64,000 nucleotides of DNA from a virus (IMGVR_UViG_3300027782_000040); one strand, 5' to 3'. Numbered from the stretch's first letter, positions 17,994-44,320 are shown. The notes: generated from the letters alone by a model not told the origin. Numbers and translations are program-made.

Positions 17994-18677
17994 ATGAAGG
18001 TATTAGGACCAAAAGAAACCGGCAGAGGATTATTAATTGAGTATGATGCTGGTCACGTATCTCCAGAAGAGAATAAAAAAATAATTTCAGAAATGAAGAA
18101 CATGGACTTTTCACAGGACATGATTCTTTATGCTGTTTTACAAAAATACGACACTCCGAATAAGAACGGAAGGATTTATCCTGAGATGTTACTTAAGAGA
18201 GAAAACGAAAAATACCAAACAATTATTAAGAAGGGTGGAGCTTTAAATGAATTAAATCACCCAACATCTTCACTTATCGATTTAGATAGAATTTCACATT
18301 CAATTCTAGAAACATGGTGGGATGGTAAAATCCTTATGGGTAAGATAAAACTATTCACTTCGCCAGGTTGGAAGAAGATGGGTATTGTTTCTACCAAAGG
18401 AGACCAAGCGGCTATGTTATTAATGAACGGAGCAACTTTGGGTATCTCTTCACGTGGAGTAGGTTCACTTAAACAAGTTAAAGGTGAGAACATTGTACAA
18501 GACGACTTTGAATTAGTTTGTTTTGATTTAGTTTCATCTCCATCTACACCTGGTGCATATGTTTTTAGTGACCCATCTGAAAGAGACCAATATCAAGAAT
18601 CTACAATTGAAAAACCCGTAGTTGAGGACAGAATGAAAAAACTAATGGGTAGATTAGATACATTTCTATCTAAATAA
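17994..18677 (+). CDS. prohead protease (T4 gp21-like)
   Basis: NKNGRIYP, ELNHP, ISH, GISSRGVGS and FDLVSSPSTPGA motifs. Confidence 0.95.
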   Translation: MKVLGPKETGRGLLIEYDAGHVSPEENKKIISEMKNMDFSQDMILYAVLQKYDTPNKNGRIYPEMLLKRENEKYQTIIKKGGALNELNHPTSSLIDLDRISHSILETWWDGKILMGKIKLFTSPGWKKMGIVSTKGDQAAMLLMNGATLGISSRGVGSLKQVKGENIVQDDFELVCFDLVSSPSTPGAYVFSDPSERDQYQESTIEKPVVEDRMKKLMGRLDTFLSK

Positions 18678-18765
18678 TTAATTTATTAGGGGTGGGAATA
18701 TTGAAATAGTCAATTTTTCCAAATTTCCAAGTATTTATAAGGTAATAAAACAACAAATTTTACAA

Positions 18766-19998
18766 ATGAGCGAAAAATCTATTTTAGAACAAGCGTTACT
18801 TCAAGTGCAAAACCTTGAAGAAGCTGTTAAGCAAAATGCAAAAGGTATACTTGCTTCAACAATGAAACAAGAACTAAGCGACTTGCTTAAAGAATCGTTA
18901 GAAGAAGAGGAGAAGTTAGATCCAATGGGTGAACAACCTGAAGACGAAACTAAACCTGACGAAGAGGAAGATGATGTAACAACAGATGATGAAGCTGACA
19001 CCGATGGTGAAGATGCTGACACTGATGTTGAAGATGATGACACAGACCTCGATAATGAACCAAGTAAAGGAATCGATGACTTAGATTCTGAAGCTGGTGA
19101 CGATACCGACACATCTATGGATGATTTAGGTACTGAACCATCTCCAGAAGAAGGTATGGATGACGAAGACGTTATGGACATGACAGGAGCTTCAGATGAT
19201 GAGGTTCTTAAAGTTTTCAAGGCTATGAAACCAGAAGATGGTATTGTAGTTAAGAAAGATGGTAATAACGTTGAATTTGCTGACGGTCAAGATGAGTATA
19301 TCATCAAACTTGATAGTGAGGAAACTCCTGATGTTGATGCAGATATGGACACAGATTTAGATACTGATATGGGTTCTGAAATGGACGCAGATTTAGATAC
19401 TGAAACTGACGAAACTTCTGACGAAACAGATATGGATGAAACTTTATATGAAATTGAGTTAGGTGAAGACGAAGATGAAGTTAAGGAAGTAGAAGCTTCT
19501 GAAGGTGAAGCTAAAGAAGTTGAAGTTGGTGAAGCGGCAAGAACATTGGGTAACGATGTTAGAAAGCCAGCTGACCAAGGTAAAAAATATAAAGCAGGTC
19601 GTCATGAAATGAACGAAGAAGTTGAAAAGTTGAAGAAACAAAATTCTGAATACAAGAAAGCTTTAATTCTTTTCAAAGACAAGCTTAATGAAGTTGCTGT
19701 ATTCAACGCAAACTTAGCTTACGCTACTCGTTTATTCACTGAACATTCTACAACAAAACAAGAGAAATTGAATATTTTAAAGAGATTTGATTCTATTTCC
19801 TCTATGAATGAAGCTAAAACTTTATTCAACACAATAAAAACTGAATTAGGTACTAAAACAACTGTAACTGAATCAGTGGCTGAAAAAATCACTAACATGC
19901 CATCAACATCTACTTCTACTGAGGTTTTAGCTGAGTCAAAAGCTTACGAAAATCCACAGTTCAAAAGAATGAAAGATTTGATGACAAAAATAAAATAA
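18766..19998 (+). CDS. prohead scaffolding/core protein
   Basis: Very acidic coiled-coil protein located between protease and major capsid protein. Confidence 0.8.
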   Translation: MSEKSILEQALLQVQNLEEAVKQNAKGILASTMKQELSDLLKESLEEEEKLDPMGEQPEDETKPDEEEDDVTTDDEADTDGEDADTDVEDDDTDLDNEPSKGIDDLDSEAGDDTDTSMDDLGTEPSPEEGMDDEDVMDMTGASDDEVLKVFKAMKPEDGIVVKKDGNNVEFADGQDEYIIKLDSEETPDVDADMDTDLDTDMGSEMDADLDTETDETSDETDMDETLYEIELGEDEDEVKEVEASEGEAKEVEVGEAARTLGNDVRKPADQGKKYKAGRHEMNEEVEKLKKQNSEYKKALILFKDKLNEVAVFNANLAYATRLFTEHSTTKQEKLNILKRFDSISSMNEAKTLFNTIKTELGTKTTVTESVAEKITNMPSTSTSTEVLAESKAYENPQFKRMKDLMTKIK

Positions 19999-20023
19999 AC
20001 TAAAAAAACAAAATATTTTAAAA

Positions 20024-21763
20024 ATGGGAGCATTATTAGAATCAGGTATGGTTGGTAACATCGGATTAAAACATTTACGTGTTATCAAGGAAGATACCAT
20101 TAAAAAATGGGACGAATTAGGTTTCTTAGAAAACTTAGAAGGTCACCAAAAAGATAATATCGCGCAATTGTATGAAAACCAAGCGTCATATTTGATTAAC
20201 GAAGCGGCAGTAGCAGATTCTTCAGGTTCTTTTGAAACTGTAGTTTTCCCTATCATCCGTCGTGTATTCTCTAAATTATTAGCGAATGACATCGTATCAG
20301 TACAAGCAATGAACTTACCAATTGGTAAATTGTTCTTCTTCGTACCTAAAATCCAAGAAAGAGATAATAGTAATAATCACTATTCTCCTTATGGATATCC
20401 AAATACAGGTGCAACAAGTCAAGGTTATGACACAGGTGCTAAGAATCTTTACGATCGTTTCTACGAAGGTAGTGACGCAGTAGGTGAAGGTCTTTTTGAT
20501 TATTCAAAAGGTTCATTCACTGATGTTTCTTTAACTGGTACATCTATTGTAACTTTTGCAAATGGTGTTGAAAGTAACGCAGTAACTATCGCTACAGGTA
20601 CCGATGTTTCATCAGTTATCTTAAAGTTAACAGGTTTCTCTAGATTAGGTCAAGGTAAATTAGCTGGTCCAGACGGTAACGAAATGGATACAGAAGAGTT
20701 TTTAGCTTCATTAACAATCACTGCACCTCGTGCAAATGCGTTAAGTGGTAGAACTTTCTTACCTTTCAACGTTGTAACTCAAAAATATGGTAAAGGTATC
20801 GTATCTTACGGACAAAAATCTGCAGGTACAAACGGTAACTTATTCAATGATATTTGCGATGAAGCTGGTACAATCTACTTAAATGTTGATTTACAAACTT
20901 ACAGTTCAACTGAAGGTTTTGCAGATACGGAAATTACAGTTACAACATTACAAGGTGATGACTTTACAGCGACTTATCGTCGTTATGCAACTTTAGAATT
21001 TGAAGATCAAATTGGTGAGGTTTCTTTTGATTTAGAATCAGTAACAGTTTCTGTAACTGAAAGAAAATTAAGAGCTAGCTGGTCTCCTGAATTGGCTCAA
21101 GACGTTAGTGCATTCCACAACATTGATGCTGAAGCTGAATTAACAGCTTTATTATCAGAGCAAATTGCAGCTGAAGTTGACCGTGAAATCTTACGTGATT
21201 TACGTAAAGGTGCAGCATGGAAATCTAAATGGGATTACAATGAGTGGAAATACGGTGGAACTGGTGGTGCAACTTTACAAGGTTACACACAAAAAGACTG
21301 GAACCAAACTTTAGTTACTAAAGTTAACCAAATTTCAGCTCAAATCCATAAAACAACCTTAAGAGGTGGTGCTAACTGGATTGTAGTTTCTTCTGAAGTT
21401 TCTGCAGTATTTGATGATTTGGAATATTTCCACGTATCAAACGCAGCTCCTGAGCAAGATTCTTACAACATGGGTATTGAGAAAATCGGTTCTTTGGCAG
21501 GTCGCTACCAAGTATACCGTGATCCTTACTTCCCAGCTAACAAAATCTTGATTGGTCATAAAGGAAAATCTTTATTGGATGCAGGTTATGTATACGCACC
21601 ATATGTGCCATTACAATTGACTCCAACAATGTACAATCCTTTCACAATGACTCCTATCAAAGGTATCATGACTCGTTACGCAAAGAAAATGGTGAACAAC
21701 CGTTACTTTGGTATCATCGATGTACAAGGTATTGCAACATTTGATATGAATACATTAAGATAA
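20024..21763 (+). CDS. major capsid protein (T4 gp23-like)
   Basis: LYENQ, VSVQAM, RKLRASWSPELAQD, IDAEAEL, YAPYVPL and GIMTRY motifs. Confidence 0.95.
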   Translation: MGALLESGMVGNIGLKHLRVIKEDTIKKWDELGFLENLEGHQKDNIAQLYENQASYLINEAAVADSSGSFETVVFPIIRRVFSKLLANDIVSVQAMNLPIGKLFFFVPKIQERDNSNNHYSPYGYPNTGATSQGYDTGAKNLYDRFYEGSDAVGEGLFDYSKGSFTDVSLTGTSIVTFANGVESNAVTIATGTDVSSVILKLTGFSRLGQGKLAGPDGNEMDTEEFLASLTITAPRANALSGRTFLPFNVVTQKYGKGIVSYGQKSAGTNGNLFNDICDEAGTIYLNVDLQTYSSTEGFADTEITVTTLQGDDFTATYRRYATLEFEDQIGEVSFDLESVTVSVTERKLRASWSPELAQDVSAFHNIDAEAELTALLSEQIAAEVDREILRDLRKGAAWKSKWDYNEWKYGGTGGATLQGYTQKDWNQTLVTKVNQISAQIHKTTLRGGANWIVVSSEVSAVFDDLEYFHVSNAAPEQDSYNMGIEKIGSLAGRYQVYRDPYFPANKILIGHKGKSLLDAGYVYAPYVPLQLTPTMYNPFTMTPIKGIMTRYAKKMVNNRYFGIIDVQGIATFDMNTLR

Positions 21764-21785
21764 TCTTAGGATTCACAATACAAAA

Positions 21786-21813
21786 GACCCTCGTAGAAAT
21801 ACGGGGGTTTTTT
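21786..21813 (+). terminator. Rho-independent terminator after the capsid gene
   Basis: GACCCTCGTA-GAAA-TACGGGGGTT stem-loop followed by a T run. Confidence 0.8.
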
Positions 21814-21816
21814 ATT

Positions 21817-21848
21817 TTTGGGATATTCCAGAATATTACTTATATTTG
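21817..21848 (+). promoter_or_regulatory. Bacteroidota sigma70-type promoter
   Basis: TTTG-N20-TATATTTG, 5 nt before the ATG at 21854. Confidence 0.65.
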
Positions 21849-21853
21849 CTATT

Positions 21854-22159
21854 ATGTCAGAAATTAACTATGAAATATTAAGATTGGACGTATTAACCAA
21901 ACTCATTGATGAGAGGGGGATTTCTTGTAAAAACAAGAAAGATGTGATGATTGAATACCTTAAAATGGACGATGAGGGTAAGTATATCCGTGAGACAACC
22001 TACGAAAAGGAAGGAGGTCGGTTTTTGGTGGGTATAGACCTCAAAAATCACTCTCAATTGATTCAAATGGGTAAGTTAGTGGAAAAGAAAGAGGCACACC
22101 CTAAAGGTCTGTATGCGTCAGATAGGATATATTTCATATCAAATCAAAAATTAATATAA
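21854..22159 (+). CDS. hypothetical protein
   Basis: Likely ATG at 21854 just after the promoter. Confidence 0.65.
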   Translation: MSEINYEILRLDVLTKLIDERGISCKNKKDVMIEYLKMDDEGKYIRETTYEKEGGRFLVGIDLKNHSQLIQMGKLVEKKEAHPKGLYASDRIYFISNQKLI

Positions 22160-22912
22160 TTACCAGCTACGACAGGCCCAATATCTTGGTTTCCAACGTG
22201 GACCTGGATTATCACAATTCATACGTGCCCTGAATGATTTACGTCTTGCAGGGTTATTTTTCTTAATAACCATTCTTTTACCTTTGGCAGATTTACCACC
22301 AAATCCAAAATTAACCTTAACGACTTTACCTTTGTCGTTTTTAACATATACTTTTGATTTCTTTACATCACCTTGCATGATTTTACCTAATTGAACTTTA
22401 CGTCCTTGGTATTCTGCTTCATTTAATAAACCACCGTTATATTCAAAATTGGTGTTTTCAACGGAACCGTCCTCATCTTCATATATTAATACGGGAGTTT
22501 CTTCGTTGTATTCAAATAATCTTTGGAATTGTTCTTCAGATATTTGAATTATTGTTCTTTTTTTCATACTCTCATCAAATTTAGTCATTGTTGGTTTATT
22601 ACCCTTACCTACTTTTGGGTCTTTCTTTTCGGCTCTTCTTTTTTGTGATGTCATAGCCTTCTTTTCTTTTTTATCATATGAAGATGCAACTTTTGGTGTT
22701 TCTTTTGAAACTTTCTTAGATGGACGACATTTAGGATATGATTTACCATCGGCATCTTTTCTACCACAAGGTGGGTGTTTACCATCTACCTTTTTACTAA
22801 CATCTACCCACTTCTCTTTAAACCACCTTGTAAGATCTTCTTTTAAAACCTCACCTGATTTAAGACATTCGTTTATATATTCTTTATCTTCCTTTGAAAC
22901 AATAATTTTCAT
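22160..22912 (-). CDS. multi-module basic protein, probably head-internal
   Basis: Two basic Cys/Trp modules (DLTRWFKEKW...PCGR...YPKCRP; AEYQG...RRKSFRAR...YWACRSW), each beginning after L-x-E. Confidence 0.7.
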   Translation of the reverse strand: MKIIVSKEDKEYINECLKSGEVLKEDLTRWFKEKWVDVSKKVDGKHPPCGRKDADGKSYPKCRPSKKVSKETPKVASSYDKKEKKAMTSQKRRAEKKDPKVGKGNKPTMTKFDESMKKRTIIQISEEQFQRLFEYNEETPVLIYEDEDGSVENTNFEYNGGLLNEAEYQGRKVQLGKIMQGDVKKSKVYVKNDKGKVVKVNFGFGGKSAKGKRMVIKKNNPARRKSFRARMNCDNPGPRWKPRYWACRSW

Positions 22913-22913
22913 G

Positions 22914-23192
22914 TTATATAATTTTATTTACCTCATTAACAAATTTATGACACTTATCGGACACCTTACCCTTATCGTGGTCTGTAATTGATAACTTTAC
23001 ATTATCATAATGAACCGTCATATCGGGGTGATGATTTTGTTTGTTGGCAATTTTCATCACCTCATTCGCAAATGACATAACCTCCTTATAATCTTTAAAA
23101 TAAAATGTTTTAATTAGTTTACCACTTACTTCCTCCCAATTATTACTATTCATAATTGTATTTTTTTGGTCTTCAGTTATTATTATTCTCAT
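22914..23192 (-). CDS. pterin-4-alpha-carbinolamine dehydratase-like protein
   Basis: W...L-x-K-x-F-x-F-x-D, NHHPD and TDHD motifs. Confidence 0.85.
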   Translation of the reverse strand: MRIIITEDQKNTIMNSNNWEEVSGKLIKTFYFKDYKEVMSFANEVMKIANKQNHHPDMTVHYDNVKLSITDHDKGKVSDKCHKFVNEVNKII

Positions 23193-23193
23193 A

Positions 23194-23955
23194 TTATAAT
23201 TTAGTATCTTTTATAAATTTTTTGTGAGAATCTTTATATGATTTTAATGATTCATCATTTACATTTTTAGTATATTGCCAATTCCAATATAAATCGTCAT
23301 TTGTTTTGAAACCGTAAAATTCATGAACTTTCTTTTGTAAATCATTAACATTAACACCGTTAAAATTTTGTCCCGTACATATAAATCCAGTTTCAATATC
23401 TTTAACTAAATTAGATTCACCTAACGCTGTGTGTCTATTTTCTATCCAAGTTAGACGTTCAATTAGATTTTGGTAAAACATATTTGTTTGTCCCCATCTA
23501 ACAGAACTAAGGAATATCACAGCATCGGATTCAAACAATTCTTTACTTATTTTCCAAAGTTCATCTTTAGGGTTATTAACACTGGCCCAACATCTATGAT
23601 GACCAGTTGGGTTTTTATCTTTATCCTTAAGTTTTGCCTTTAATAAACCGCAACTATTACCATCTTTTCTTGATACATTACCCTCACAAGGAACAATATT
23701 TAGTTCTGAAACGTCCATTAATGTTGAGTTATCACCTAATTCTTCATTAAGGTACATTGCAATCATTTTAGATTTTGGTATATCAATATCATTTTTGTCC
23801 CAATTGTGTCTATTAGAACAACTTAATAATAAAACTTTTTTCTTCTTTTTAAGAACATCCAATGTTTTCTTTAAAGATTTCCAAGCATCAGATTGTACCA
23901 TCTCCTCAGAAATCATCATTTGTCTAATCCTTTGTATGTTCTCTTCTAAATTCAT
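23194..23955 (-). CDS. flavodoxin-fold NAD(P)H-dependent FMN reductase / iron-sulfur flavoprotein-like protein
   Basis: Cys motif IVPCEG...C...RCW and ESDAVIFLSSVRWG. Confidence 0.7.
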   Translation of the reverse strand: MNLEENIQRIRQMMISEEMVQSDAWKSLKKTLDVLKKKKKVLLLSCSNRHNWDKNDIDIPKSKMIAMYLNEELGDNSTLMDVSELNIVPCEGNVSRKDGNSCGLLKAKLKDKDKNPTGHHRCWASVNNPKDELWKISKELFESDAVIFLSSVRWGQTNMFYQNLIERLTWIENRHTALGESNLVKDIETGFICTGQNFNGVNVNDLQKKVHEFYGFKTNDDLYWNWQYTKNVNDESLKSYKDSHKKFIKDTKL

Positions 23956-24612
23956 CTATTTACATTTTCTCCAACCACCACCTTTTGCTTTATAATCTTT
24001 TGCCGCGAATCCATTTGCATAAGCTGAGGGGTATACGTCAAATTTTGATTTAGCTTTAGCTTTAGATGCTGCCCATTTTGCAGGGTCTGTTGGACAATTC
24101 TTACTTTCATCTATTTCCATAGCTTCATACATTTCCTTTTCTGATTCATTCTTAGGTTTCTTACCGGCTTTTTTCATAGCAATTGCAATAGCGGCTTGTT
24201 GTGTAAGATTTTTTGCTTCACTTACAGGTACACAATTTGGTACCATTTTTCCACCTTTTTTCTTACTACCAACTTGTTTGTAACCATCCCAACATTTTTC
24301 GTCAAGTTGTCCTTCTTCGTTCATACTAAACTGATCCACGTCAGCAGTTACATCTTGTTTATCTTTACTTTTAGTTTCATTCATGAAGAAATCAAAAACT
24401 TGGTCCATATTGTTCTTCGCCTCAGATACGTGATCGTCCGCCCAATCGTGACCATTTTTAATAATGTTATCCAATTCTTGTGGATTCATTTTCATCAACA
24501 TTTCACATTGTCTATGTATTTGTTGTAAATTACCAAAAAACATATAGTTTTCAGTTGTTTGACTTTCAATTATTTTCTTTAATTGAGCTTCGCTGATTAT
24601 AATTTTCTTCAT
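23956..24612 (-). CDS. multi-module protein, probably head-internal
   Basis: Leader MKKIIISEAQL; modules CWDGYKQVG...VPNCVP, QQAAIAIA and YPSAYANG...YKAKGGGW. Likely start at 24612. Confidence 0.7.
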   Translation of the reverse strand: MKKIIISEAQLKKIIESQTTENYMFFGNLQQIHRQCEMLMKMNPQELDNIIKNGHDWADDHVSEAKNNMDQVFDFFMNETKSKDKQDVTADVDQFSMNEEGQLDEKCWDGYKQVGSKKKGGKMVPNCVPVSEAKNLTQQAAIAIAMKKAGKKPKNESEKEMYEAMEIDESKNCPTDPAKWAASKAKAKSKFDVYPSAYANGFAAKDYKAKGGGWRKCK

Positions 24613-24625
24613 ATTAATAAATACT

Positions 24626-26014
24626 TTATTTTTCTGATACGATTTCAAAATTTATTGATTCTTTATAGTATATCTCTTCAGTGTGAGTTTTTCCTTTAAT
24701 CTGTAGGAAATACTGTCTTGGTATTAAATAAGAACTATCTAATTGAAATGAGTTTTCATTCGTTTTATCTAATAACGTCCAATCGTGTACAATTACTTGA
24801 GTCGCACCTTCTTCGATATAAATTCTATAATAAACCTCATCTAACAATACCGTTTTAGGTACGTCAATAGATTTAAATGTAATAACTACTTTTCTTATTT
24901 CACCACTTACTATTTTTTCATTTTGTTTAATTCCAAAAAATTGAATGGCATACCTTTGTAATTCTGTTTGATTTTCACCTACCGTAAATCCGGCGGTATA
25001 TGGTTTTGGAATGAACTTTTGTCTTACTCCACCAGAAATTGTATTACCATCTAAAATAACACCTTTCCAATGGTCAGTAAAGAATTTCTTTCCGTCACAT
25101 TCTGGTGTGGTTATTGTAAATGTAACCTTATAGATACCTTTTCTAATTAATGTTGTGGTTAAACCTGAAAGACCTGTAATAACAGCACCGTCAGAGTTTA
25201 ATATGTCAACCGTTGGGTTTGAATCTAAATTATAAAAATTGGTTCCTTTTGTAACGTATAGATATAAATTCTGTGATACTTTCTCAACAAAATTATTTCT
25301 ATCGTCCATTATGGTATCTTCAAAATGTGTGTCAACGTATGGTTCAAAGAATGTTTGTGTGTATTTGGTAAAAAATGCTACTGATTGGTCTCTATCAGGT
25401 GTTAAATATTGATAAACAACAGCGAATGATAATCCTAAACCATGATTTGTATTACCTGTAATAATACCATTTACATAATCGGTAATATCAAAATCAATGT
25501 TTTCACCACCATTATCCATATGTATTTTATTACCTGTGTACCCTGAAATGACTGTTGGGGAGTCATGAAATACACCTGCAGTTGACCATTGATTCAATGT
25601 TGTTCTATAATACCAGTTTGACGGTCTTTCGTCAAATGTTCTATTTCCAGTTACAAAGTCATAACCAGAATCTGCATAATCAAACCCTAAACCTTCATCC
25701 CAAAATTGATCTAATTTAAATAATATTAAATCAAATGAACTTGTTCTGTCTCTACCGGTAGTTCTGTTTAAACCCTTTTGACCCTCATCACCAAAGATTG
25801 TATTTGTTAAATGTAAAGTATGTCTAGTGTTAGAATCTACCACTAATTCATCATTATTAACTTTATTTTTTAAATCGGTAAAGTCAACTTTAAATAAAAA
25901 TTTAGAAAATGAAGAACCATAAAAAATCTCTGTTGCAGGGTTTTTTGCGGTGTTAACCTGTGAATCCTTAATAATAGTATTATTCTTTTCAAAATAGGAA
26001 CGGAAATATGACAT
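24626..26014 (-). CDS. probable virion structural protein
   Basis: 462 aa beta-rich ORF with TATTTATA upstream. Confidence 0.65.
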   Translation of the reverse strand: MSYFRSYFEKNNTIIKDSQVNTAKNPATEIFYGSSFSKFLFKVDFTDLKNKVNNDELVVDSNTRHTLHLTNTIFGDEGQKGLNRTTGRDRTSSFDLILFKLDQFWDEGLGFDYADSGYDFVTGNRTFDERPSNWYYRTTLNQWSTAGVFHDSPTVISGYTGNKIHMDNGGENIDFDITDYVNGIITGNTNHGLGLSFAVVYQYLTPDRDQSVAFFTKYTQTFFEPYVDTHFEDTIMDDRNNFVEKVSQNLYLYVTKGTNFYNLDSNPTVDILNSDGAVITGLSGLTTTLIRKGIYKVTFTITTPECDGKKFFTDHWKGVILDGNTISGGVRQKFIPKPYTAGFTVGENQTELQRYAIQFFGIKQNEKIVSGEIRKVVITFKSIDVPKTVLLDEVYYRIYIEEGATQVIVHDWTLLDKTNENSFQLDSSYLIPRQYFLQIKGKTHTEEIYYKESINFEIVSEK

Positions 26015-26038
26015 CTCTTTTTTATTATAAATATCAAA

Positions 26039-27747: not shown

Positions 27748-27750
27748 ATA

Positions 27751-29796: not shown

Positions 29797-30173
29797 TATA
29801 ATGAATAATTATTTGGTTTATTATCTGAACCATCATTTACCAGTTTATCTAATAACTCCCTATCTTCATCTGACAATGTAAGTTTACCCATTGGACCACC
29901 TCCATTACCACCACTTGTAGTTTGTTTTAATAGTAAACTTTGTAATTTAACTAATGAAATTTTCTTCTCGGTACAATCGTTTAAAATCTTCTGTTGTTCT
30001 TTAATAACAGGTCCAATTGTACTCATATCTTCAGCGTCCTTCATAAATCCCATCATTTTTCTCAAAATTTGGGATGCAGTATTTCTATTCTCAACAACAT
30101 CGTTGTAGATTTCCTGCATTAGGGCTAACGCCGAATCAACATCTAAAGTAATATTGTTTCTTTGTGTTCTCAT
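29796..30173 (-). CDS. hypothetical protein
   Basis: 125 aa ORF with TATTTATA 3 nt upstream. Confidence 0.7.
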   Translation of the reverse strand: MRTQRNNITLDVDSALALMQEIYNDVVENRNTASQILRKMMGFMKDAEDMSTIGPVIKEQQKILNDCTEKKISLVKLQSLLLKQTTSGGNGGGPMGKLTLSDEDRELLDKLVNDGSDNKPNNYSL

Positions 30174-30187
30174 ATCTATAAATAGAT

Positions 30188-30886
30188 TTATTCTAAAAAT
30201 CCAACCAAAATACCGTCATACATCTTTTTAAAACGTTTTAGGGATACTCTAATCTCTTTTGTGGATAATGAGGTCATTTCTCGTAATGAGAGTAAGATAA
30301 GGTTCTTATTGAATTTATTACCATCACCAACTTGGAATATTTTATCAAAATTGCTAAAAATCTCTAACAATGCATATCCCAATTTTTGTTCGTTTTCTGT
30401 TAGGTTTTCCTTCTCAATAAAGTTTTCTAAAGAAATGGTTAATTTAATTATAACACTTTGGTAATCAATAATGTGTTCGTCAATAACATAAGACAAATCT
30501 TTCCTATCTTCAATATCGGATGATATGTCATCGTAAGATACTTGTCTATTCTGTTCTTTAGTGTCTTTCTGTATTGCCCCCATAAGGTAGTTTTTACAGA
30601 TAGTACCAAAGTATGAATACGCTTTAGTGTTCTTTGTGTGGTCGAATTTATTAATTTTAGTGATTAAAAAAGACATAGTATCGGTGTGAATTTCTTCAAA
30701 TTCCATATCCTTCCTATATAATTTATATCTTCTAATAATACTCTCAACCATAATAACTAATGGTTCTCTTAAAAACTCATTGAATATTTTGTTTTTTTCA
30801 TCTTCATCGGTACTCTCTAGATACTTAACGACGGCTTTTTCTTGATCCTCACCAAAGTATATTTTTTGGGTTCGTGGTCTCGGCAT
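30188..30886 (-). CDS. phage RNA polymerase sigma factor (gp55-like)
   Basis: Region 2-like KFDHTKNTKAYSYFGTICKNYL and a C-terminal HTH-like LREMTSLSTKEIRVSLKR. Confidence 0.75.
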   Translation of the reverse strand: MPRPRTQKIYFGEDQEKAVVKYLESTDEDEKNKIFNEFLREPLVIMVESIIRRYKLYRKDMEFEEIHTDTMSFLITKINKFDHTKNTKAYSYFGTICKNYLMGAIQKDTKEQNRQVSYDDISSDIEDRKDLSYVIDEHIIDYQSVIIKLTISLENFIEKENLTENEQKLGYALLEIFSNFDKIFQVGDGNKFNKNLILLSLREMTSLSTKEIRVSLKRFKKMYDGILVGFLE

Positions 30887-31666: not shown

Positions 31667-31667
31667 A

Positions 31668-32732
31668 TTATACTGTTTCTTCTTGTTTTAATTTGTCTAA
31701 TGCTGATTGAATAGATTCAACTCTTTTATTTATTAATGAACCAAATATTGATAAAATATTATTTTTTGTAATTTCAGTGTCATAAGGTAATAACGTTTCT
31801 TTCATTTTATCTTTAACTTCATCAGTTAATTCAACACCCTCAATCCACGCTAAAATATATGAACCTAATAATTCAACTAATTTATTACCGTCGTATGTCC
31901 ACATACCATTTTCACTTAACCAATCTGGTTCAGTGTCAGGAATTTTACCAACTACAGGTACACCACATTTCATAGATTCTAATGGAAATGTACCGAACGT
32001 ACTTTCATCATCAACCCATACCGATACCATACATTCCTTTAAGTTTGACGAAAATTCATCATAAGACATTTGGACCATATCTCTAAATGTAATCCAACGT
32101 AATTGTGGAAACTTCAAATAAAATTCAGAAATTAATTTTCTATGTACCGCTCTATCTCTACAACTGATTGCCACATAAGGTTTTAATGGTAAATTAATTG
32201 GTTTAAAATCATCTCCGATAATCGGTGGAATAATATACACTAAACTTTCAGGGAAGTAATCTAAAATGTATTTTTTTGTACTTTCAGTTGTGGTAATAAC
32301 TTTATCAAATCCATATTCGCTATACCTACTACCAATTGGTAATGTCTCAAACATATATTCTTTTTGTTGTATCAATAAAACTTTAATACATCTAATACTT
32401 GATAATTGTTGTAATGTGTTTCCGTAATACTCGGGAACAACTAAAACATCTTCAATTTTAATTTCAACTTTATCTTCTTTGATAGATACAATCTCTAATT
32501 CACTATATTCTTCACTTAACCAAGAACTAACCCCAACATAGTTTTTATCTTCAACTAAAATTTTGGACTTTCTACCATTTCTATTAAGTGTTAATGCCAA
32601 ATCGTAAATGTATTTTACAGATGCTCTCGCGTTTGTTTTAGTGTCGTATGTTAAAAAATACACAACACTTTCATTGTTATTTAATCTACCTAAAGCAGAT
32701 TCTAATTTTTCTATGTTTTCGTTATTACTCAT
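31668..32732 (-). CDS. glycosyltransferase, GT-B fold
   Basis: STFGTFPLESMKCGVPVVG resembles the GT4 nucleotide-sugar binding motif. Confidence 0.7.
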   Translation of the reverse strand: MSNNENIEKLESALGRLNNNESVVYFLTYDTKTNARASVKYIYDLALTLNRNGRKSKILVEDKNYVGVSSWLSEEYSELEIVSIKEDKVEIKIEDVLVVPEYYGNTLQQLSSIRCIKVLLIQQKEYMFETLPIGSRYSEYGFDKVITTTESTKKYILDYFPESLVYIIPPIIGDDFKPINLPLKPYVAISCRDRAVHRKLISEFYLKFPQLRWITFRDMVQMSYDEFSSNLKECMVSVWVDDESTFGTFPLESMKCGVPVVGKIPDTEPDWLSENGMWTYDGNKLVELLGSYILAWIEGVELTDEVKDKMKETLLPYDTEITKNNILSIFGSLINKRVESIQSALDKLKQEETV

Positions 32733-33006
32733 CGTCTTCTATTAATATTTGATTTTTTATTAGTGTGTTAAATGCAATTTTAAATGATGTGGTTGTGTTG
32801 TTTTGTGCGAATTCACCAAGTTCTTCATCTACTTGTTCAAACTCGGCCAACACTCTATCTAAACACATTTTTATAATTTCATATTTGAAAATGTTTACCT
32901 CGGTAACATCTTCTCCATCCTCGTCTTTTATATTTTTTCCTGTTCTACATTTGTCTGTGACTCCGTCAAGGTCAATGTAGTAGGTTTTTCCAAAGATTTC
33001 AACCAT
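32725..33006 (-). CDS. hypothetical protein
   Basis: 93 aa ORF. Confidence 0.65.
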   Translation of the reverse strand: MVEIFGKTYYIDLDGVTDKCRTGKNIKDEDGEDVTEVNIFKYEIIKMCLDRVLAEFEQVDEELGEFAQNNTTTSFKIAFNTLIKNQILIEDDE

Positions 33007-33572
33007 GGTTCTTGTATTTCAGTTAATTTAGTTATTTCTTTTTTATTTGTAAAGTATTGATTATAAGTCGTGTTAAATTTAATTACAACTTTATCACTTG
33101 GACACGAGTCAACAATTTTTTTACAATCAGTAATCCAAACATCACACTTGTTCCAATTCTCATCTAAGTTTTCAGTTTTAATTGATTTAATATTGTTACC
33201 CATAAATCCATTTTTTGATAAGAAGAAAAGTGTTGCAGGTTTTGCTTTACCTAATTCATCTAAACCAACTAATGTAAAATTATGTTCTGGATTGTCAAAA
33301 ATCATTTTATGTAAATCCGTAAATGTGGTGGAATAACTCAATCCGGCGTGACCAAATATTTCAATTGGATACTCAACAAATAAAAAATATTCAAATTCTT
33401 CTTGTGATTGAAATTTATAAGAATTTAATAAATTATCGTTTTGAATTGGTTCCGTTATGTCGTATTCAAAGACATCTTCACTTTCACTATCTAAATAAGA
33501 ATCCTTATAATGAAAGTCAAATTTTTGAATTGTGTTTCTTATAACACCATCTATACTAATAAAAATTTCCAT
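32928..33572 (-). CDS. HAD-fold 5'(3')-nucleotidase-like protein (degenerate motif)
   Basis: ISIDGVIRN start, DVWITD and YN motifs. Likely start at 33572. Confidence 0.55.
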   Translation of the reverse strand: MEIFISIDGVIRNTIQKFDFHYKDSYLDSESEDVFEYDITEPIQNDNLLNSYKFQSQEEFEYFLFVEYPIEIFGHAGLSYSTTFTDLHKMIFDNPEHNFTLVGLDELGKAKPATLFFLSKNGFMGNNIKSIKTENLDENWNKCDVWITDCKKIVDSCPSDKVVIKFNTTYNQYFTNKKEITKLTEIQEPWLKSLEKPTTLTLTESQTNVEQEKI

Positions 33573-33612
33573 AATAAAAATATAACACATTCATAATCAT
33601 AAGTAAATAATA

Positions 33613-33644
33613 AACCCACACCATTATGATAAACGGTGTGGGTT
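33613..33644 (-). terminator. stem-loop downstream of phoH
   Basis: AACCCACACC...GGTGTGGGTT 10-bp inverted repeat; weak U tract. Confidence 0.5.
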
Positions 33645-33668
33645 CAATTATATAATCTAATAATTATT

Positions 33669-34400
33669 TTAATCGTATCTATTCAATATTTCACCAATGA
33701 TTGGGTTTCGTACAATGTCTTGCATTCCAAATTCAAAAATCCCAATTCCCTTAACATCTTGTAATCTCATTTTAGCATCAAATAAACCAGATTTAGTTTT
33801 ATCTCTAAATTTATCTGATTGTTCCAAATCACCTGATAAGAAAAATTTGGAATTAAATCCAATACGAGTTAATAATAACTTAATCTGTGATGGGGTGGCA
33901 TTTTGTGCTTCCTCAAAAACAAGGATTGTATTATCTACGTTCCAACCTCTCATGTAAGCGAGTGCGGCAACTTCAATATAACCTTGGTCTTTTAGTTCTT
34001 CTCTCGCTTCCTTACCAATAATCTTATTTAAAAGGTAATATGACGGATAAATGTATGGGTCTAATTTCTCCTCTAAACCCCCTGGAAGTGACCCTAATTT
34101 CTCTTCAGCTTCAACTGCGGGCCTAACTATGATAATCTTCTCATACTTGTTAGAATCGTCGTATAATAGGTCCACAGCACGTTTCATTGCTATGTAGGAC
34201 TTACCTACACCTGCGGGACCGAAACATAATGTTATTTGATTTTCTCCAAGAATGTTCCAATAAATTTCTTGGTTTTTCGTTAGGAACTTTTCTTTAGGAC
34301 GTTTGATGATTTGTCTTATCCTATCCTTATGTGATATCTTCTTCTCTTCTACTAATACGGGTGGGTGGTTGGTTGTTTTGGTTCTAGTTTTATATGCCAA
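33669..34400 (-). CDS. phoH: PhoH-like ATPase
   Basis: GPAGVGKS, RPAVE, LGSLPG, YMRG, EEAQN, LLTRIG, GDLEQSD and IVRNP motifs. Confidence 0.95.
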   Translation of the reverse strand: MAYKTRTKTTNHPPVLVEEKKISHKDRIRQIIKRPKEKFLTKNQEIYWNILGENQITLCFGPAGVGKSYIAMKRAVDLLYDDSNKYEKIIIVRPAVEAEEKLGSLPGGLEEKLDPYIYPSYYLLNKIIGKEAREELKDQGYIEVAALAYMRGWNVDNTILVFEEAQNATPSQIKLLLTRIGFNSKFFLSGDLEQSDKFRDKTKSGLFDAKMRLQDVKGIGIFEFGMQDIVRNPIIGEILNRYD

Positions 34401-34443
34401 AATTGATAGTTTTAAAAGTTCTGTTTATTGTTTATAAATATCA

Positions 34444-35097
34444 TCAAACACCGGTAGATCCAAATCCTCCCTCGCCTCTTTCTGTATTAGATAATTCAGG
34501 AACCTCCGTCATATATATGGTAGGATAAGGTAATATGATGATTTGAGCTCCTCTATCTCCAACTTTGTATTTAATTGAGTCCAAACCATTTGTTTTCTTA
34601 AAGGTGGCTTGTAATTCTCCTCTATATCCACTATCAATTACACCAACACAATTTGATAATATTAAATCTTGGTTTCTAACTGAAGAACGAGGGAATACTA
34701 ACCCAACATAACCTTTAGGAATTTCTATTGCAATACCAAATCCATATGATACGCTAAATGATGTATTTTCAATTTCTTTTGTGATTGTTAAATCCATACC
34801 AGCATCCCCAACTTTTGAATATGATGGAATTACAGCTTCAGGAACTAATTTTTTAACTTTAACTAAAGTACCACCTCCCGTCATTGTTGGTTGAGTGTTA
34901 ATTATGTTTTGTCTGTTAACAGGGGTATTAATATTTTTTGAAACTTCGTCATTAGTAATTTCACCAGATAATTTATTTAGAACTTCTTCTAACTCACTTA
35001 AATAACTCATATCCTGACTTTCATCAGTATCGTCATTAAGTGTTTTTTCAATCTCTTCTAATTTTTTTAGGTACTGTTCTATTTCTTCTTTTTCCAT
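34444..35097 (-). CDS. dut: dUTPase with an acidic N-terminal extension
   Basis: AGMDL, PRSS, GVIDSGYRGE, AQ and RGEGGFGSTG motifs. Confidence 0.95.
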   Translation of the reverse strand: MEKEEIEQYLKKLEEIEKTLNDDTDESQDMSYLSELEEVLNKLSGEITNDEVSKNINTPVNRQNIINTQPTMTGGGTLVKVKKLVPEAVIPSYSKVGDAGMDLTITKEIENTSFSVSYGFGIAIEIPKGYVGLVFPRSSVRNQDLILSNCVGVIDSGYRGELQATFKKTNGLDSIKYKVGDRGAQIIILPYPTIYMTEVPELSNTERGEGGFGSTGV

Positions 35098-35098
35098 T

Positions 35099-35311
35099 TT
35101 ATTTTTTCTTTTCTTCCAACCATTTATCTAACGCCTTTATTCTTCTTTTAAGGTCATCATCTTGGGGTCTTAAACATATTTCTACGAATAAATCAGTTAT
35201 TCGAATTAATTCTTCTAAAGTAACAGAAACACCAACTGTTGTGACATACTCTAAAGCCATTTTACTTTGTGATTGACGCATAATTTGTATTTCACGACTA
35301 TAGAATTCCAT
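35099..35311 (-). CDS. hypothetical protein
   Basis: 70 aa ORF. Confidence 0.6.
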   Translation of the reverse strand: MEFYSREIQIMRQSQSKMALEYVTTVGVSVTLEELIRITDLFVEICLRPQDDDLKRRIKALDKWLEEKKK

Positions 35312-35330
35312 ATCAGTTGGTGTTTAATTG

Positions 35331-35567
35331 TTATTTACTTTTGTAATACTCTGGTGTGTTCTTACTGTCAATGATACATTCAATTGCCATTTTTGCAACT
35401 GAAATACTTTCACTTGAACGTGTGTCACCAGCTCTGTATTTTGATGCAACAATGGTTGCCTCTTCTACTGATTCCGCTTCGATAATGTACTTGTACTTTT
35501 TAACACGAGGGTTTCCTTCTCTGTCCATTTGTTCGGTTTCATAACCGATTGTAACTAAATAATGCAT
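35331..35567 (-). CDS. hypothetical protein (resembles the Bacteroidota DUF4494 N-terminal domain)
   Basis: YLVTIGYE...G...KYIIEAESVEEA pattern. Confidence 0.55.
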   Translation of the reverse strand: MHYLVTIGYETEQMDREGNPRVKKYKYIIEAESVEEATIVASKYRAGDTRSSESISVAKMAIECIIDSKNTPEYYKSK

Positions 35568-35573
35568 GTTGTT

Positions 35574-36794
35574 TTATTTTATTATTGATTTAAAAAATTC
35601 TACTCTATCTTGACAAACTTTTTTTAATGAATATTTGTCTTTAACTGTTTCATATAAACGATTACCTAAATCTTCAATCATATTTGGATTTTCAACTAAA
35701 CGTTTCATATGTTTTGCCCAATCCTTATGATTTCTTCTTGGGTTAACTAATAATGCGTTACCGTTATCATTAAACTTACCGTCGTTAATTGCTGAAATTA
35801 AATCTAATGTATATGGGTCAGTTTCACTTGCAATAATTGCTTTCTTATGAAACCCCGCTTCAATAACTTTTAATTGTGATTTGTTAGCGTTAAATTGAGA
35901 TTCAACTAATGGTGCCAAAGACACATCAAATGTATTATAATTTGATGCATATGTTTTAATGTCCTTTGTCCACCTTCTTCTATATGATTCATTTTCATCA
36001 TCATATGGCGTATCAACAAATGTATTTAAAAAACTTTTATATTGAGGACTTAATACTTTATAATCTTCAGTAAAGAATTTTTCATACTTATACCAAACAG
36101 TTTCTGTTGGTTGAATTGAACGTTGTCTTTGTTTTCCTTCTTGGTCAATTTCAGTCACAGTACCTCTTAAGTCAAACCCACATAACACAAATTGTACTTT
36201 ATCTTTGAAACTGTTATGTGTTGAAGAAATACCATTTGACATTAATTCAATATCATGTAAATGTGATGAACCACCTAACCAACCAAATCTAATTTTATCT
36301 GACTTAATTGTTTCTCTTTTAAACTGAGGTTCATCTTCATTAACCGCATTTGGAAAAATTTCAATATTTTTTATATGTAATTTATCTTTGATGGTTTTAG
36401 TGAAAATTGGTGTTGTCGTTGTAACATAATCAACTACTTTTAACATGTCAATTTTCATTTCACCAATCTTAGATGCTTTAACGTGATGATACATTGGGTG
36501 TCTTTGATCAACAAACCACAAATCATCAATATCCATAATAACTTTAATACCTTTGGATTGTAACCATTTTATTCTTCCAATGTTTTGTTCGTGATTTGTT
36601 TGATGTATGAATGTATGAAATACGACGATATCGTAATTTAAAAAATATTCATCATTGTTATCTGCATTATATGAGATATCAACATGGACATCATCCGAAT
36701 GATTATCACCAATAAATTGGTAAGGGTCCATCATCCTAAACTTACCTACTCCGTGTTTATCCGAGGGAATTGCTAAAATTCTAATTTTTGACAT
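35574..36794 (-). CDS. glycosyltransferase, GT-B fold (GT4-like)
   Basis: MDIDD, PNAV, GWLGGSSH, DVSLAPL and FNANKSQLKVIEAG motifs. Confidence 0.85.
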   Translation of the reverse strand: MSKIRILAIPSDKHGVGKFRMMDPYQFIGDNHSDDVHVDISYNADNNDEYFLNYDIVVFHTFIHQTNHEQNIGRIKWLQSKGIKVIMDIDDLWFVDQRHPMYHHVKASKIGEMKIDMLKVVDYVTTTTPIFTKTIKDKLHIKNIEIFPNAVNEDEPQFKRETIKSDKIRFGWLGGSSHLHDIELMSNGISSTHNSFKDKVQFVLCGFDLRGTVTEIDQEGKQRQRSIQPTETVWYKYEKFFTEDYKVLSPQYKSFLNTFVDTPYDDENESYRRRWTKDIKTYASNYNTFDVSLAPLVESQFNANKSQLKVIEAGFHKKAIIASETDPYTLDLISAINDGKFNDNGNALLVNPRRNHKDWAKHMKRLVENPNMIEDLGNRLYETVKDKYSLKKVCQDRVEFFKSIIK

Positions 36795-36845
36795 TAATTA
36801 CTATTATATGTCTATAATATAAGAAATAAAAATGAGAAAACAAAA

Positions 36846-37418
36846 TTACTTTGCTTTATTTACGCCAGTGATTTTACCTTTGAATATGGAATCACCCACT
36901 TTTAATACTAAATTTTCGTTAATTGACGCAGTGGTTGATGCTGATAATATTTGATTTAACTTTTCGTCCATTACTTTACGAACTGTATTTTCAATAAGTG
37001 TGGCAATTGCCCCCATATCAATATTATTATTATATTGTACTACTTGTTTTTGTTGTGGTTGTTTTTTACCAACACCTTCTTGTTCCATTAATCTTTTAGC
37101 ACCTTTTAAGAAATCCATATCAAGTGTGTCATTTAAAGATATTTGTTGAATTGGATTCTCAATCATTGCTTTTTTAATTGCGTCAGGTAATTTAGAATTT
37201 TGTATTTTATCAACTGACGGCATTCCCATTTGTTTTGTAGAAGATTGTTGTGGTAAATCTTGACTATTCATTAAATCTTCAGGGTTAGACCTTAACATTT
37301 CTTCATTTACATGACCTCTTTCGTAGTTTCCGCCGTCTACTTTATTCATAACCTTTTTAGCGTTAACTAATTTTTGCATTAAATCGTTAGATGATATTGT
37401 TCCTTTTCCTTGTGACAT
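36846..37418 (-). CDS. hypothetical protein
   Basis: 190 aa ORF with TATTTATT 3 nt upstream. Confidence 0.7.
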   Translation of the reverse strand: MSQGKGTISSNDLMQKLVNAKKVMNKVDGGNYERGHVNEEMLRSNPEDLMNSQDLPQQSSTKQMGMPSVDKIQNSKLPDAIKKAMIENPIQQISLNDTLDMDFLKGAKRLMEQEGVGKKQPQQKQVVQYNNNIDMGAIATLIENTVRKVMDEKLNQILSASTTASINENLVLKVGDSIFKGKITGVNKAK

Positions 37419-37451
37419 ACTAATAAATATTTTATTTTAATATAATATTTT

Positions 37452-38207
37452 TTATGAAAACATTAAACGCTTAATGTTTTTAATACTTTCTTGAAGTTTT
37501 TTATTTTCATCCTCTTCTGGATTAACTTCAGGTTTTTCCTGTGGTTTTGGTTGAGGAGGTTCTTGTGTTTTAGGTTCTTCGGGTGTTGGTTGAGTCGGTT
37601 CTTTCGGTGGCGTTGGTGTCTTTGTTGGTTTTGTTTGTGGTGTTGGTTGTGGTAATTCTGTTGGTGTTGGTTCCGTAGGTTCAGTAGGTTTAACTTCAGG
37701 CTCAACTGGTTGAGGTTCTGTAGGTTGTGGTTGAACTGGTTTAGGTGTTGGTTTACTAACTGTAGGTTTAACAATCCTTGGTTTTTTAACTTCAGGTTTA
37801 TTTGTCCAATCAGCAGTTACATAAGTAACACTCATAGATTTATCATCACCTTCTTTATAGTCAGGTCTTTTTTGGTCAAACTTACTATCACTAACCTTTA
37901 AATTACTCATACGACCAACCATAAAAGTTCTCCAACCTGTTTTATCAAATCCTTTTTTGGATACTGATGGTGGTTGAACATACGCACGAACAACTAAATT
38001 ACCTTTTTTATTTAAACCTAATGCAACAGCTTCTGCGTCAATTCTATTACCTGGTTTAACACTATTTTTTGCGGGTTTTCTTGGACCACTATAAAAAAAA
38101 GATATTTTATTCCTACTTTTGATTGCGTCAACAATAGGTTTTGTTTTAGTCGTCTTTAATATATTTTGTTCTTCAATAACATCGAAGAATGTTTGATTAA
38201 AATTCAT
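37452..38207 (-). CDS. WYL-like domain protein with a Pro/Thr/Glu-rich tail
   Basis: AIKSRNKISFFY...R...E...LG...VRAY...GWRTFMVGRM pattern. Confidence 0.65.
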   Translation of the reverse strand: MNFNQTFFDVIEEQNILKTTKTKPIVDAIKSRNKISFFYSGPRKPAKNSVKPGNRIDAEAVALGLNKKGNLVVRAYVQPPSVSKKGFDKTGWRTFMVGRMSNLKVSDSKFDQKRPDYKEGDDKSMSVTYVTADWTNKPEVKKPRIVKPTVSKPTPKPVQPQPTEPQPVEPEVKPTEPTEPTPTELPQPTPQTKPTKTPTPPKEPTQPTPEEPKTQEPPQPKPQEKPEVNPEEDENKKLQESIKNIKRLMFS

Positions 38208-38602
38208 TATTCGAAATCAGGATATTTGTTGGATTCACCAAATTTATTTTTATTAATAACTTGTATTCTTGTATTAATATCAGTTAATGAACCAACTTGT
38301 CCGTTATCACCAATTTGTCCTTTACCAAATTCGTCACCATCTGACATAGCATTAGGATTTGTAACACCATATCCATTTTCACCACTATATTTATTGGTTG
38401 CCATAATTTGAATTCTTGTGTTAATATCAGTTAAAGAACCGACAGTACCCGTATCACCAACTTGTCCTTTACCTAATTCATCTCCATCGGAAAGTGCGTT
38501 TTTACTTGTGATACCATAACCATTTTTTTCTGAATATCTATTAATAACAACTTCTTGTGTTCTTAATTTTTCAGCGATAACTTCTAATTGTGTCTTTGCC
38601 AT
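38207..38602 (-). CDS. protein with a tandem ~49 aa duplication
   Basis: Two copies of N-x-YS...GYG...NA-x-SDGDE-x-GKGQ...VGSLTDINTRIQ. Confidence 0.7.
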   Translation of the reverse strand: MAKTQLEVIAEKLRTQEVVINRYSEKNGYGITSKNALSDGDELGKGQVGDTGTVGSLTDINTRIQIMATNKYSGENGYGVTNPNAMSDGDEFGKGQIGDNGQVGSLTDINTRIQVINKNKFGESNKYPDFE

Positions 38603-38603
38603 A

Positions 38604-39098
38604 TTATAACATTAATTTTTTTATTCTTTGTAATTGTTCAAACAAACCCGATAATTTAATACTTGATATTGAAGATTTATGTGAATTACTTTTCATCATA
38701 TTCAACGGAGGTAAGAAATCTGGTTTTTTTGAATGTTTTTTCAAATGACTATTTTTTCTTTCTCCAGTTATCCCACCAATATCATCAGCCTGTTTTCTTC
38801 CGTCTTTTCTATTACTCACCATATCTCTTTCACCTTGTAGGTATTGTTTGGACCATCTATCCATTAACTCACCACCAGCCAAGTCATACCTAACTCTATC
38901 ACCAATTTTATCAATATTTTGTAAGTCATGTATAATTCTTTTTAACTGTCCGTATTTAACTTTTTTATCCATTAAAAGTTTCTTGGCTCTTTGTACACCA
39001 TGAACATGTGTTCCGTTAAGACCAACGATTGTATGGTTAATCTTATCTAAAATGTTCTGCGGTATATCAAATATCCTATGTTTTAAATCCTTATTCAT
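38604..39098 (-). CDS. hypothetical basic protein
   Basis: 164 aa ORF ending LFEQLQRIKKLML. Confidence 0.7.
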   Translation of the reverse strand: MNKDLKHRIFDIPQNILDKINHTIVGLNGTHVHGVQRAKKLLMDKKVKYGQLKRIIHDLQNIDKIGDRVRYDLAGGELMDRWSKQYLQGERDMVSNRKDGRKQADDIGGITGERKNSHLKKHSKKPDFLPPLNMMKSNSHKSSISSIKLSGLFEQLQRIKKLML

Positions 39099-44303: not shown

Positions 44304-44320
44304 AATAAAACAAAAAATAT

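Follow-up and report, generated by a model that had tools for sequence, protein, structure and literature searches.

The DNA analyzed here, a stretch of 64,000 nucleotides from the virus IMGVR_UViG_3300027782_000040 (below, the window), belongs to an uncultured jumbo T4-like lake phage of ~300 kb or more, and encodes unrelated proteins that share a short helix motif (tag A). The motif is strictly terminal and portable, is selected at the level of the peptide, occurs in a late-type gene context, and is homologous to the scaffold tail of Flavobacterium phage immuto. We consider it fairly probable that tag A is a removable label that brings late proteins into the assembling prohead (capsid targeting); our confidence goes no higher because every step past the existence and portability of the peptide, from binding to the core or shell through cleavage and packaging to injection, is one that we infer.

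The sample of relatives consists of 80 IMG/VR contigs with the major capsid protein (MCP) 74-94% identical to that of the window. The long related contigs span 251-316 kb at an estimated completeness of 75-95%, hence the assignment of the lineage to jumbo phages, and a relative of 286,785 bp, G006 (L133/L134), served as a near-complete proteome. The nearest cultured relatives, namely, Flavobacterium phage vB_FspM_immuto (phage immuto, grown on Flavobacterium sp. LMO8), Microcystis phage Mel-JY01, and Rhodothermus phage RM378, are distant, with ~40% MCP identity.

Terminal helix motif in the window

The pattern [RN][IM][KR]x[LM]M (here and below, x is any residue and h a hydrophobic one) has exactly five matches in the 66 window proteins (19,206 residues), the chance expectation estimated from residue frequencies being ~0.1. 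All five lie at most 15 residues from a protein end: at positions 213 of 227 in the prohead protease, 401 of 410 in the scaffold, 9 of 253 in a flavoprotein, 244 of 251 in a WYL-like protein, and 158 of 164 in the product of gene 38604-39098 (the 38604 protein). A preliminary description of this DNA had quoted nine peptides for this motif and a second leader, all of which are found in the genes named, and had proposed that the first motif is terminal; the motif search, conducted with a regular expression and a hidden Markov model (HMM), agrees with this, as every match is terminal and the ends are kept in relatives.

The tag has a longer, 12-residue form, L-x-E-x-[IVL]-x-[RKN]-[IMF]-[KR]-x-[LM]-[MI], with the consensus L-x-E-x-[IV]-x-[RK]-I-K-x-[LM]-M. 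Run on the proteins of the window and of G006, the 12-mer HMM yields ten matches above 8 bits, all of them terminal, with the maximum of 3.7 bits in shuffled proteomes; the N-terminal matches begin at residues 3-6, and the C-terminal ones end at most two residues before the stop. Three window proteins are tagged according to this profile. The flavoprotein, a flavodoxin-like protein of the flavin mononucleotide (FMN) reductase fold (gene 23194-23955), starts with the leader MNLEENIQRIRQMMISE (23905-23955, minus strand), in which tag A is followed by an ISE site; it is identified by the regular expression, the profile, and conservation, the 12-mer being kept at this N-terminus in 19 loci and the start MNLQENIQRI[KR]xMMISE recurring, like the scaffold and protease tails, across the 80 loci. 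The WYL-like protein (gene 37452-38207) carries the C-terminal tag LQESIKNIKRLMFS (37455-37496, minus strand) after a Pro/Thr/Glu-rich linker; in 42 loci, this tag is kept with the form L-x-E-x-I-x-[RK]-[IF]-K-x-L-[MI]. The 38604 protein, of 164 residues, ends with LFEQLQRIKKLML (38607-38645, minus strand), found by both the regular expression and the profile, with Leu152, Glu154, and Leu162 invariant in 26 homologs. The 12-mer is present at the C-termini of the latter two proteins in 42 out of 42 related loci, with its Leu, Glu, and distal Leu invariant.

In the AlphaFold2 models, the tags are helices of low confidence tethered outside the folded cargo. For the flavoprotein (mean predicted local distance difference test score, pLDDT, 74.6), the leader is predicted as a helix at residues 3-19 with pLDDT 55-64, outside the flavodoxin-like FMN-reductase core; the top Foldseek matches to this model are 1sqs, 6jxn, and NQO2 (E about 1e-5). 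The fold of this protein is known from the model alone, since by sequence it has no PDB or Pfam match, and the search for its homologs returned only close phage-type copies. The 38604 protein, with no family, Atlas, or fold match, is modeled with a folded helical domain at residues 1-110 and, past a linker that is basic and disordered, the tag as a helix at the very end (150-163). The tag helices are amphipathic.

A sliding-clamp-binding C-terminal motif, such as those of T4 gp33, gp55, and gp43, was considered and ruled out, as the motif is shared with head-internal proteins. Separately, the head-module protein encoded at 8851-9825 (plus strand) begins with MAEIKPLGSEKLNSDEKLKRILELTYY, where EKLKRILEL near the N-terminus is a weak look-alike of the tag, kept in G006; its tag-profile score is too low for it to count as a tag.

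Portability of tag A and its cargo

Tag A is not bound to particular proteins, which substantiates the earlier proposal of a portable tag on unrelated proteins: it is a terminal module found on unrelated late proteins. In one related locus (L009), a different protein of 175 residues beside the flavoprotein bears the same leader, and G006 encodes seven tagged proteins, five at the N-terminus and two at the C-terminus; five to six different proteins bear this leader in one relative genome. When a word search was run with residues 1-40 of a G006 protein, it retrieved 73 metagenome proteins that share the identical NLQENIQRIKEMMG core. In this length-limited metagenome search, at least 20 unrelated bodies were observed behind the identical NLQENIQRIKEMMG leader, which has the form MNLQENIQRIKEMMG-h-h-x-E; among them are P-loop kinases of three kinds, as well as PG_binding_1 proteins. 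At 73 out of 73 metagenome junctions, Glu is located three to four residues past the leader Gly, within [LVI]-(h)-x-E; likewise, the h-x-E protease-site motif is present in 15 out of 15 distinct N-terminal leaders, and L-x-E is invariant before the C-terminal tags.

It is hardly credible, given these data, that the motif is a product of chance or of the reader's bias, that is, a pattern fitted afterwards to five peptides. The regular expression was indeed fitted by eye, and its scaffold and protease members are weak, scoring 2.6 bits by the profile. However, position is not part of the expression, yet all matches are terminal; the tags are kept in independent contigs; and the identical leader stands on these 20 or more cargo families, so that for the cargo tags chance is already refuted.

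Cargo proteins with an assigned family comprise an HD-domain hydrolase, a PolyA_pol/CCA-adding enzyme, an FMN-reductase-like protein, pterin-4a-carbinolamine dehydratase (PCD), P-loop kinases, a Tae4-type peptidoglycan amidase, and PG_binding_1 proteins. Many of them are found together in a 16-kb array of G006 (124.6-140.6 kb), located on the minus strand and late-type, with about 25 leader-bearing genes, most of which begin with leader A, MK(K)IIITESQ, or MG[KQ]RFTITESE; the array includes the CCA-adding enzyme (PolyA_pol, E 2e-40), the HD hydrolase, PCD, an FMN-reductase-like protein, and the Tae4-type amidase (E 2e-12). Any copy of such an array in the window phage would lie outside the 64 kb.

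The leaders head a hypervariable gene island beside the MCP gene, and their AT-rich MKII... starts suit efficient initiation. Hence, the shared starts could reflect conservation of DNA or RNA that serves to link gene cassettes in recombination or to set the context for translation initiation, an idea of the kind once proposed for the internal protein (IP) loci of T-even phages. We find this very unlikely. In the paralogous leaders A, 55 out of 101 pairs of codons for identical residues use different codons, and therefore the peptide, not the DNA, is conserved; with a further 94 of 246 codon pairs varying while the residues are kept, the codon test largely refutes this explanation and rules out conservation of the leaders at the DNA level. 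Moreover, the same peptide also occurs at C-termini.

Relation to the scaffold tail

The link between tag A and the scaffold is seen most directly in phage immuto. Its scaffold ends with ...SEQVSRWQKLAGIIK (SRWQKLAGIIK), and two unrelated immuto proteins, encoded at 25470-25865 and 111631-112095, begin with MKKQILSEQF[KR]RMQ[FK]LAGIITES, so that the tail and both N-terminal leaders have SEQxxR[WM]QKLAGII in common, matching at 10-11 out of 14 residues. When the immuto proteome is scanned with the tail SEQVSRWQKLAGII, the two leaders score 48 and 41, vs. at most 26 for other proteins and a maximum of 33 in shuffled proteomes. An immuto leader used as the query has G006 leaders as its top three matches, at the same residue position, and tblastn of this leader against 50,697 phage records returned immuto phages only.

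Scaffold tails of the same family are found in Mel-JY01, ending with VVERMKKLAGIVK (ERMKKLAGIVK), and in LR756508 (SRMQKLADIS), and thus a conserved peptide, KRMKDLMxKIK in the window clade, occupies the extreme scaffold C-terminus in the window clade, immuto, Mel-JY01, and LR756508. In the window, the very acidic scaffold in the gp22 position (18766-19998, plus strand), encoded between the protease and MCP genes, ends with the tail FKRMKDLMTKIK (19960-19995, plus strand), of which ENPQFKRMKDLMxKIK is kept in 80 loci. The tail of the protease, DRMKKLMGRLDTFLSK (18627-18674, plus strand), is kept in about 60 relatives, where it recurs as DRMKKLMGxLDxFLSK. With the Mel-JY01 tail as the query, this protease tail is the best match in the window, and the G006 protease tail together with three leaders is within the top eight of 80,000 positions.

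Based on the immuto tail-leader match, the match between immuto and G006 leaders, and the tails of Mel-JY01 and LR756508, we take the tag to descend from an ancestral scaffold tail. The agreement of tail and tag by clade, both of the K...M type in the window clade and both of the Q...A type in immuto, suggests the same for these two clades.

Second leader and protease sites

The second pattern, [ILVF]-h-[ILV]-[TS]-E-x-[QE], has 17 matches, vs. 0.57 in shuffles, and 12 of the 17 are at residues 3-5, vs. 0.015 expected. The leader so defined (leader B), which the preliminary description had regarded as a second address tag, is real and enriched at protein starts, but it is not an independent address of the helix type. 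It opens PCD (gene 22914-23192, Pfam Pterin_4a) as MRIIITEDQ (23166-23192, minus strand) and a protein of 218 residues (gene 23956-24612) as MKKIIISEAQ (24583-24612, minus strand, matched by the regular expression); KIIVSKED of the 22912 protein, also listed earlier as a member, fits poorly.

The claim that a tag had been grafted onto PCD does not hold, as this protein has no N-terminal extension relative to cellular PCDs: its residues 7-88 match positions 5-88 of the 91-position Pterin_4a profile (E 6e-18), and PDB entries 3jst and 2ebb align from residue 5; without an added N-terminal segment, nothing is grafted. The natural start of PCD is merely shaped to the consensus, as is MNIIITESQ in the G006 PCD, like its neighbors. 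In relatives of the 218-residue protein, leader B is exchanged for other N-terminal helices before the conserved ENYMFF core. The DUF5872 protein (gene 22160-22912) has an internal site of the same pattern, IIQISEEQ (22526-22549, minus strand), and relatives split the gene at this very site, with the downstream gene opening with leader B (L020 and L072 start with MKLIITESQFKRLFEY, ...IISITEDQFQRLFEF), which fits a cleavage junction. The products of 22160-22912 and 23956-24612 (minus strand) are polyprotein-like, composed of short basic Cys/Trp modules (DUF5872; ends GPRWKPRYWACRSW, KAKGGGWRKCK) that relatives have either joined or separated at leader-B or h-x-E sites, as if the protease freed small basic peptides.

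The I-I-T-E-S-Q string of leader B also forms the junction after the helix in the immuto leaders (LAGIITE/SQ, the slash marking the cut) and is similar to recorded T4 sites, namely, ITE/SQ in gp21, LTE/SQ and LIAE/AQ in gp22, FLTE/AE in gp23, and also LLIE/T. The candidate sites of the window are IIITE/DQ, IISE/AQ, YLINE/AA in MCP, LLIE/Y at the protease N-terminus, and SILE/Q at the scaffold N-terminus, those of the three head proteins being at places homologous to T4 and kept in relatives. In MCP, the predicted maturation site is near residue 63, corresponding to FLTE/AE of T4, and the N-terminal region is invariant among relatives. Since the same string follows the helix in immuto and matches the T4 gp21 cut sites, leader B is best read as a short propeptide of seven residues (MK-IIITE) with an I-x-E cut site, i.e., a cleavage site without the helix, as in T4 Alt.

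The sites also bear on a different role of the helix, that of a zymogen-type propeptide or a protease-docking element, which would either prevent the activity of potentially harmful enzymes (kinases, amidases, nucleotidyltransferases) or offer them to the protease, packaging being directed by other features. Such a role accords with the h-x-E site at the end of each leader, the mostly enzymatic cargo, and the RMKKLM tail of the protease itself. We nevertheless regard it as unlikely: T4-family prohead proteases are active solely inside proheads (PMC9026906), and therefore a cut site would be useless unless the protein were already there; the homology of the helix is to the scaffold tail and not to a protease substrate; and leader B carries the site without the helix.

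Head module and expression context

The head module is encoded on the plus strand in the order terminase (12847-14622), T4-type gp20 portal (14677-16500, Portal_T4, E 5e-76), two small proteins in core position, prohead protease of the T4 gp21 family (17994-18677, Peptidase_S77, Pfam E 2e-21), scaffold, and MCP of the gp23 family (20024-21763, Pfam Gp23, E 2e-73). Thus, the gp20 portal, gp21-family protease, acidic scaffold, and gp23 MCP that a head using T4-type capsid targeting sequences (CTS) requires are all in the window.

The structural genes of the window are mostly preceded not by the T4 late promoter TATAAATA but by TATTTATA, which the genes for the portal, protease, scaffold, sheath, and tube have 5-40 nt upstream. 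The same motif heads both operons that hold all tagged window genes, at 26026-26033 (minus strand) upstream of the operon running from 26014 to 22160 with the leader-bearing genes, and at 39899-39906 (minus strand) upstream of the operon from 39883 to 37452 with both C-tagged genes; window sites include those at 14665, 17970, 18732, 26026 (minus strand), 30177 (minus strand), 39899 (minus strand), 54738, 57500, and 59024. It also occurs throughout the G006 array, and 69 of the 378 G006 genes have it at most 45 nt from the start. Probably, TATTTATA serves as the late promoter, recognized with the help of the gp55-like sigma factor encoded at 30188-30886 (minus strand). This factor ends with ...SLKRFKKMYDGILVGFLE, a hydrophobic C-terminus that may bind the sliding clamp, as the tail of T4 gp55 does.

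Capsid targeting as the likely function

Tag A, a short amphipathic helix, often then followed by G-h, would be derived from the C-terminal tail of the head scaffold and would serve as a docking peptide that takes late-made proteins into the prohead core or shell. The cut site would be an h-x-E two to five residues after the helix in the N-terminal placement, and an L-x-E directly before it in the C-terminal one. As the protease cuts after Glu in I/L-x-E, the label would be removable within the prohead by this gp21-type enzyme; the mature cargo would then remain with the DNA and presumably be ejected at the next infection. We count in favor of capsid targeting that the Tae4-type amidase and PG_binding_1 cargo represent typical virion-borne activities.

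Several observations weigh against capsid targeting. The CCA-adding enzyme, HD hydrolase, PCD, and flavin reductase have no obvious use inside a capsid, and TATTTATA is assigned as a late promoter from its position alone. The literature search found no virion proteomics, structure, or genetics for the window clade or immuto. The tag has no sequence likeness to the T4 CTS (MKTYQEFIAE, quoted in PMC9026906), and the tails of T4 gp21, gp22, gp67, and gp68 lack the motif; Mel-JY01 and LR756508, scanned whole, have the scaffold tail and no terminal cargo tags. In the window itself, the scaffold and protease tails, weak by the tag profile as noted above, match the cargo tags only in the six-residue core R-[IM]-K-x-L-M; BLOSUM scans of the proteome with these tails stay within the shuffled null (25 vs. 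the 95% null of 27, and 24 vs. 32), as do those with the G006 tails; and no fine-scale co-variation of tails (KRMKDLM vs. SRIKEMM) with flavoprotein leaders is seen among the 80 close loci. Within this clade, the earlier grouping of these tails with the cargo tags is weak, the similarity of the window's own tails being within chance; the homology to the scaffold tail is seen via phage immuto.

If this chance-level similarity is taken together with the fact that amphipathic helices with a hydrophobic moment of 0.5-0.8 are common, tag A could be a generic interaction or oligomerization motif, which might recognize a chaperone, some part of the tail or baseplate, or a site on a membrane; the scaffold tail would then resemble it by convergence. 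We assess this as improbable, because the match of the immuto tail to the leaders is far above the null, the motif is strictly terminal and coupled to cut sites, and in this clade it is carried by the protease, which must enter the core.

Beyond capsid targeting as such, we put forward, more tentatively and with somewhat greater doubt than belief, that this freshwater jumbo T4-like lineage may use mimicry of the scaffold tail as a general, exchangeable loading system, in which a cleavable label of 15-20 residues at either terminus of dozens of enzyme families would deliver them with the DNA as a takeover and counter-defense toolkit, and which would reveal the partner of CTS-type signals to be that of the scaffold tail. 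The cargo of such a system might, equally tentatively, include several P-loop kinases, the peptidoglycan amidase and binders, the CCA-adding enzyme, the HD hydrolase, and the flavin reductase with PCD.

If true, capsid targeting of injected proteins would not be peculiar to T-even phages, but would be a general and evolvable strategy, with such signals arising by copying of the scaffold tail. This would provide a concrete binding hypothesis for a question open since the discovery of the T4 CTS, a sequence rule predicting the injected proteome of uncultured giant phages, and a short tag of natural origin with which proteins could be loaded into HK97-fold shells. It would also point to unexpected candidates for virion-delivered enzymes, namely, the tRNA CCA-adding enzyme, kinases, and redox/pterin enzymes.

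Other genes of the window

A ribosomal protein S21 homolog of 63 residues (17233-17424, minus strand, Pfam Ribosomal_S21, E 1e-11) is encoded amid the core-protein genes of the head module and is preceded by its own TATTTATA-type motif; Mel-JY01 has a protein annotated as RpsU in the same place, and LR756508 has an S21-like open reading frame. In the regions 39916-42807 and 43233-45148 (both plus strand), a large fiber-like protein combines long linkers of Pro/Thr repeats with a Laminin_G_3 (concanavalin-like) domain at its C-terminus; two proteins downstream of it have the N-terminal 30 residues in common, as well as the end ...RVY..L...E....N....SR[FY]GL. Two adjacent small paralogs of 83 and 81 residues (7455-7706 and 7780-8025, plus strand) have no family match.

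Comparison with known systems

The CTS carried by T4's internal proteins IPI-III and Alt was reportedly described by Mullaney and Black in 1996. According to its logic, proteins of diverse kinds are carried to the scaffolding core by a short shared propeptide, which gp21 afterwards removes (PMC3012670, PMC9026906, PMC5694885). A T4 CTS with Asp at position 10 is reported to enter proheads still. T4 CTS peptides have 10-19 residues, while Alt has a seven-residue propeptide, paralleled here by the seven-residue leader B, and is also processed at the C-terminus (PMC9026906, PMC5694885). Both the T4 CTS and tag A, a putative propeptide, are short terminal peptides common to unrelated proteins of a T4-type phage and end in a gp21-type h-x-E site; in both cases, the genes are in variable loci, and the cargo includes enzymes and defense-related proteins. 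The differences are that tag A is a helix of 12-15 residues homologous to the scaffold tail and located at either terminus, and that the range of its putative cargo is much wider (at least 20 families, as counted by the length-limited search).

Jumbo phages phiKZ, 201phi2-1, and SPN3US also have a gp21-like protease that cuts after Glu, with many internal proteins processed, propeptides proposed to target proteins to the prohead, and C-terminal cutting of the protease itself (PMC5694885, PMC7411985, PMC10052503). Unlike tag A, their propeptides are mostly longer than 100 residues, have no single shared portable sequence, carry A/S/G-x-E sites, and have no reported link to the scaffold tail.

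The herpesvirus protease enters the procapsid by bearing the C-terminus of the scaffold. Coat-binding helices at scaffold C-termini resemble the proposed role of tag A in that a C-terminal scaffold peptide docks to the shell interior (PMC9962691, PMC8939255), and in P22, fusion of the tail to foreign enzymes is an engineering method for loading them into particles (PMC9962691). The P22 and herpesvirus tails are unrelated to the tag in sequence, and cargo loading by tail fusion, engineered in P22, is apparently natural and widespread here. Encapsulin cargo-loading peptides are also short and terminal, and it is the lumen of an HK97-fold shell to which they direct various enzymes; however, encapsulins have no portal, scaffold, protease, or DNA, and their peptides stay in place and have no sequence relation to the tag. 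The likeness to encapsulins drawn in the preliminary description is thus an analogy only, the window having portal, terminase, sheath, and tube genes.

The motif strings were not found in the literature searched. The proposed system follows the logic of the T4 CTS and differs from it in four respects, namely, the sequence, the origin in the scaffold tail, the placement at both termini, and the breadth of the cargo.

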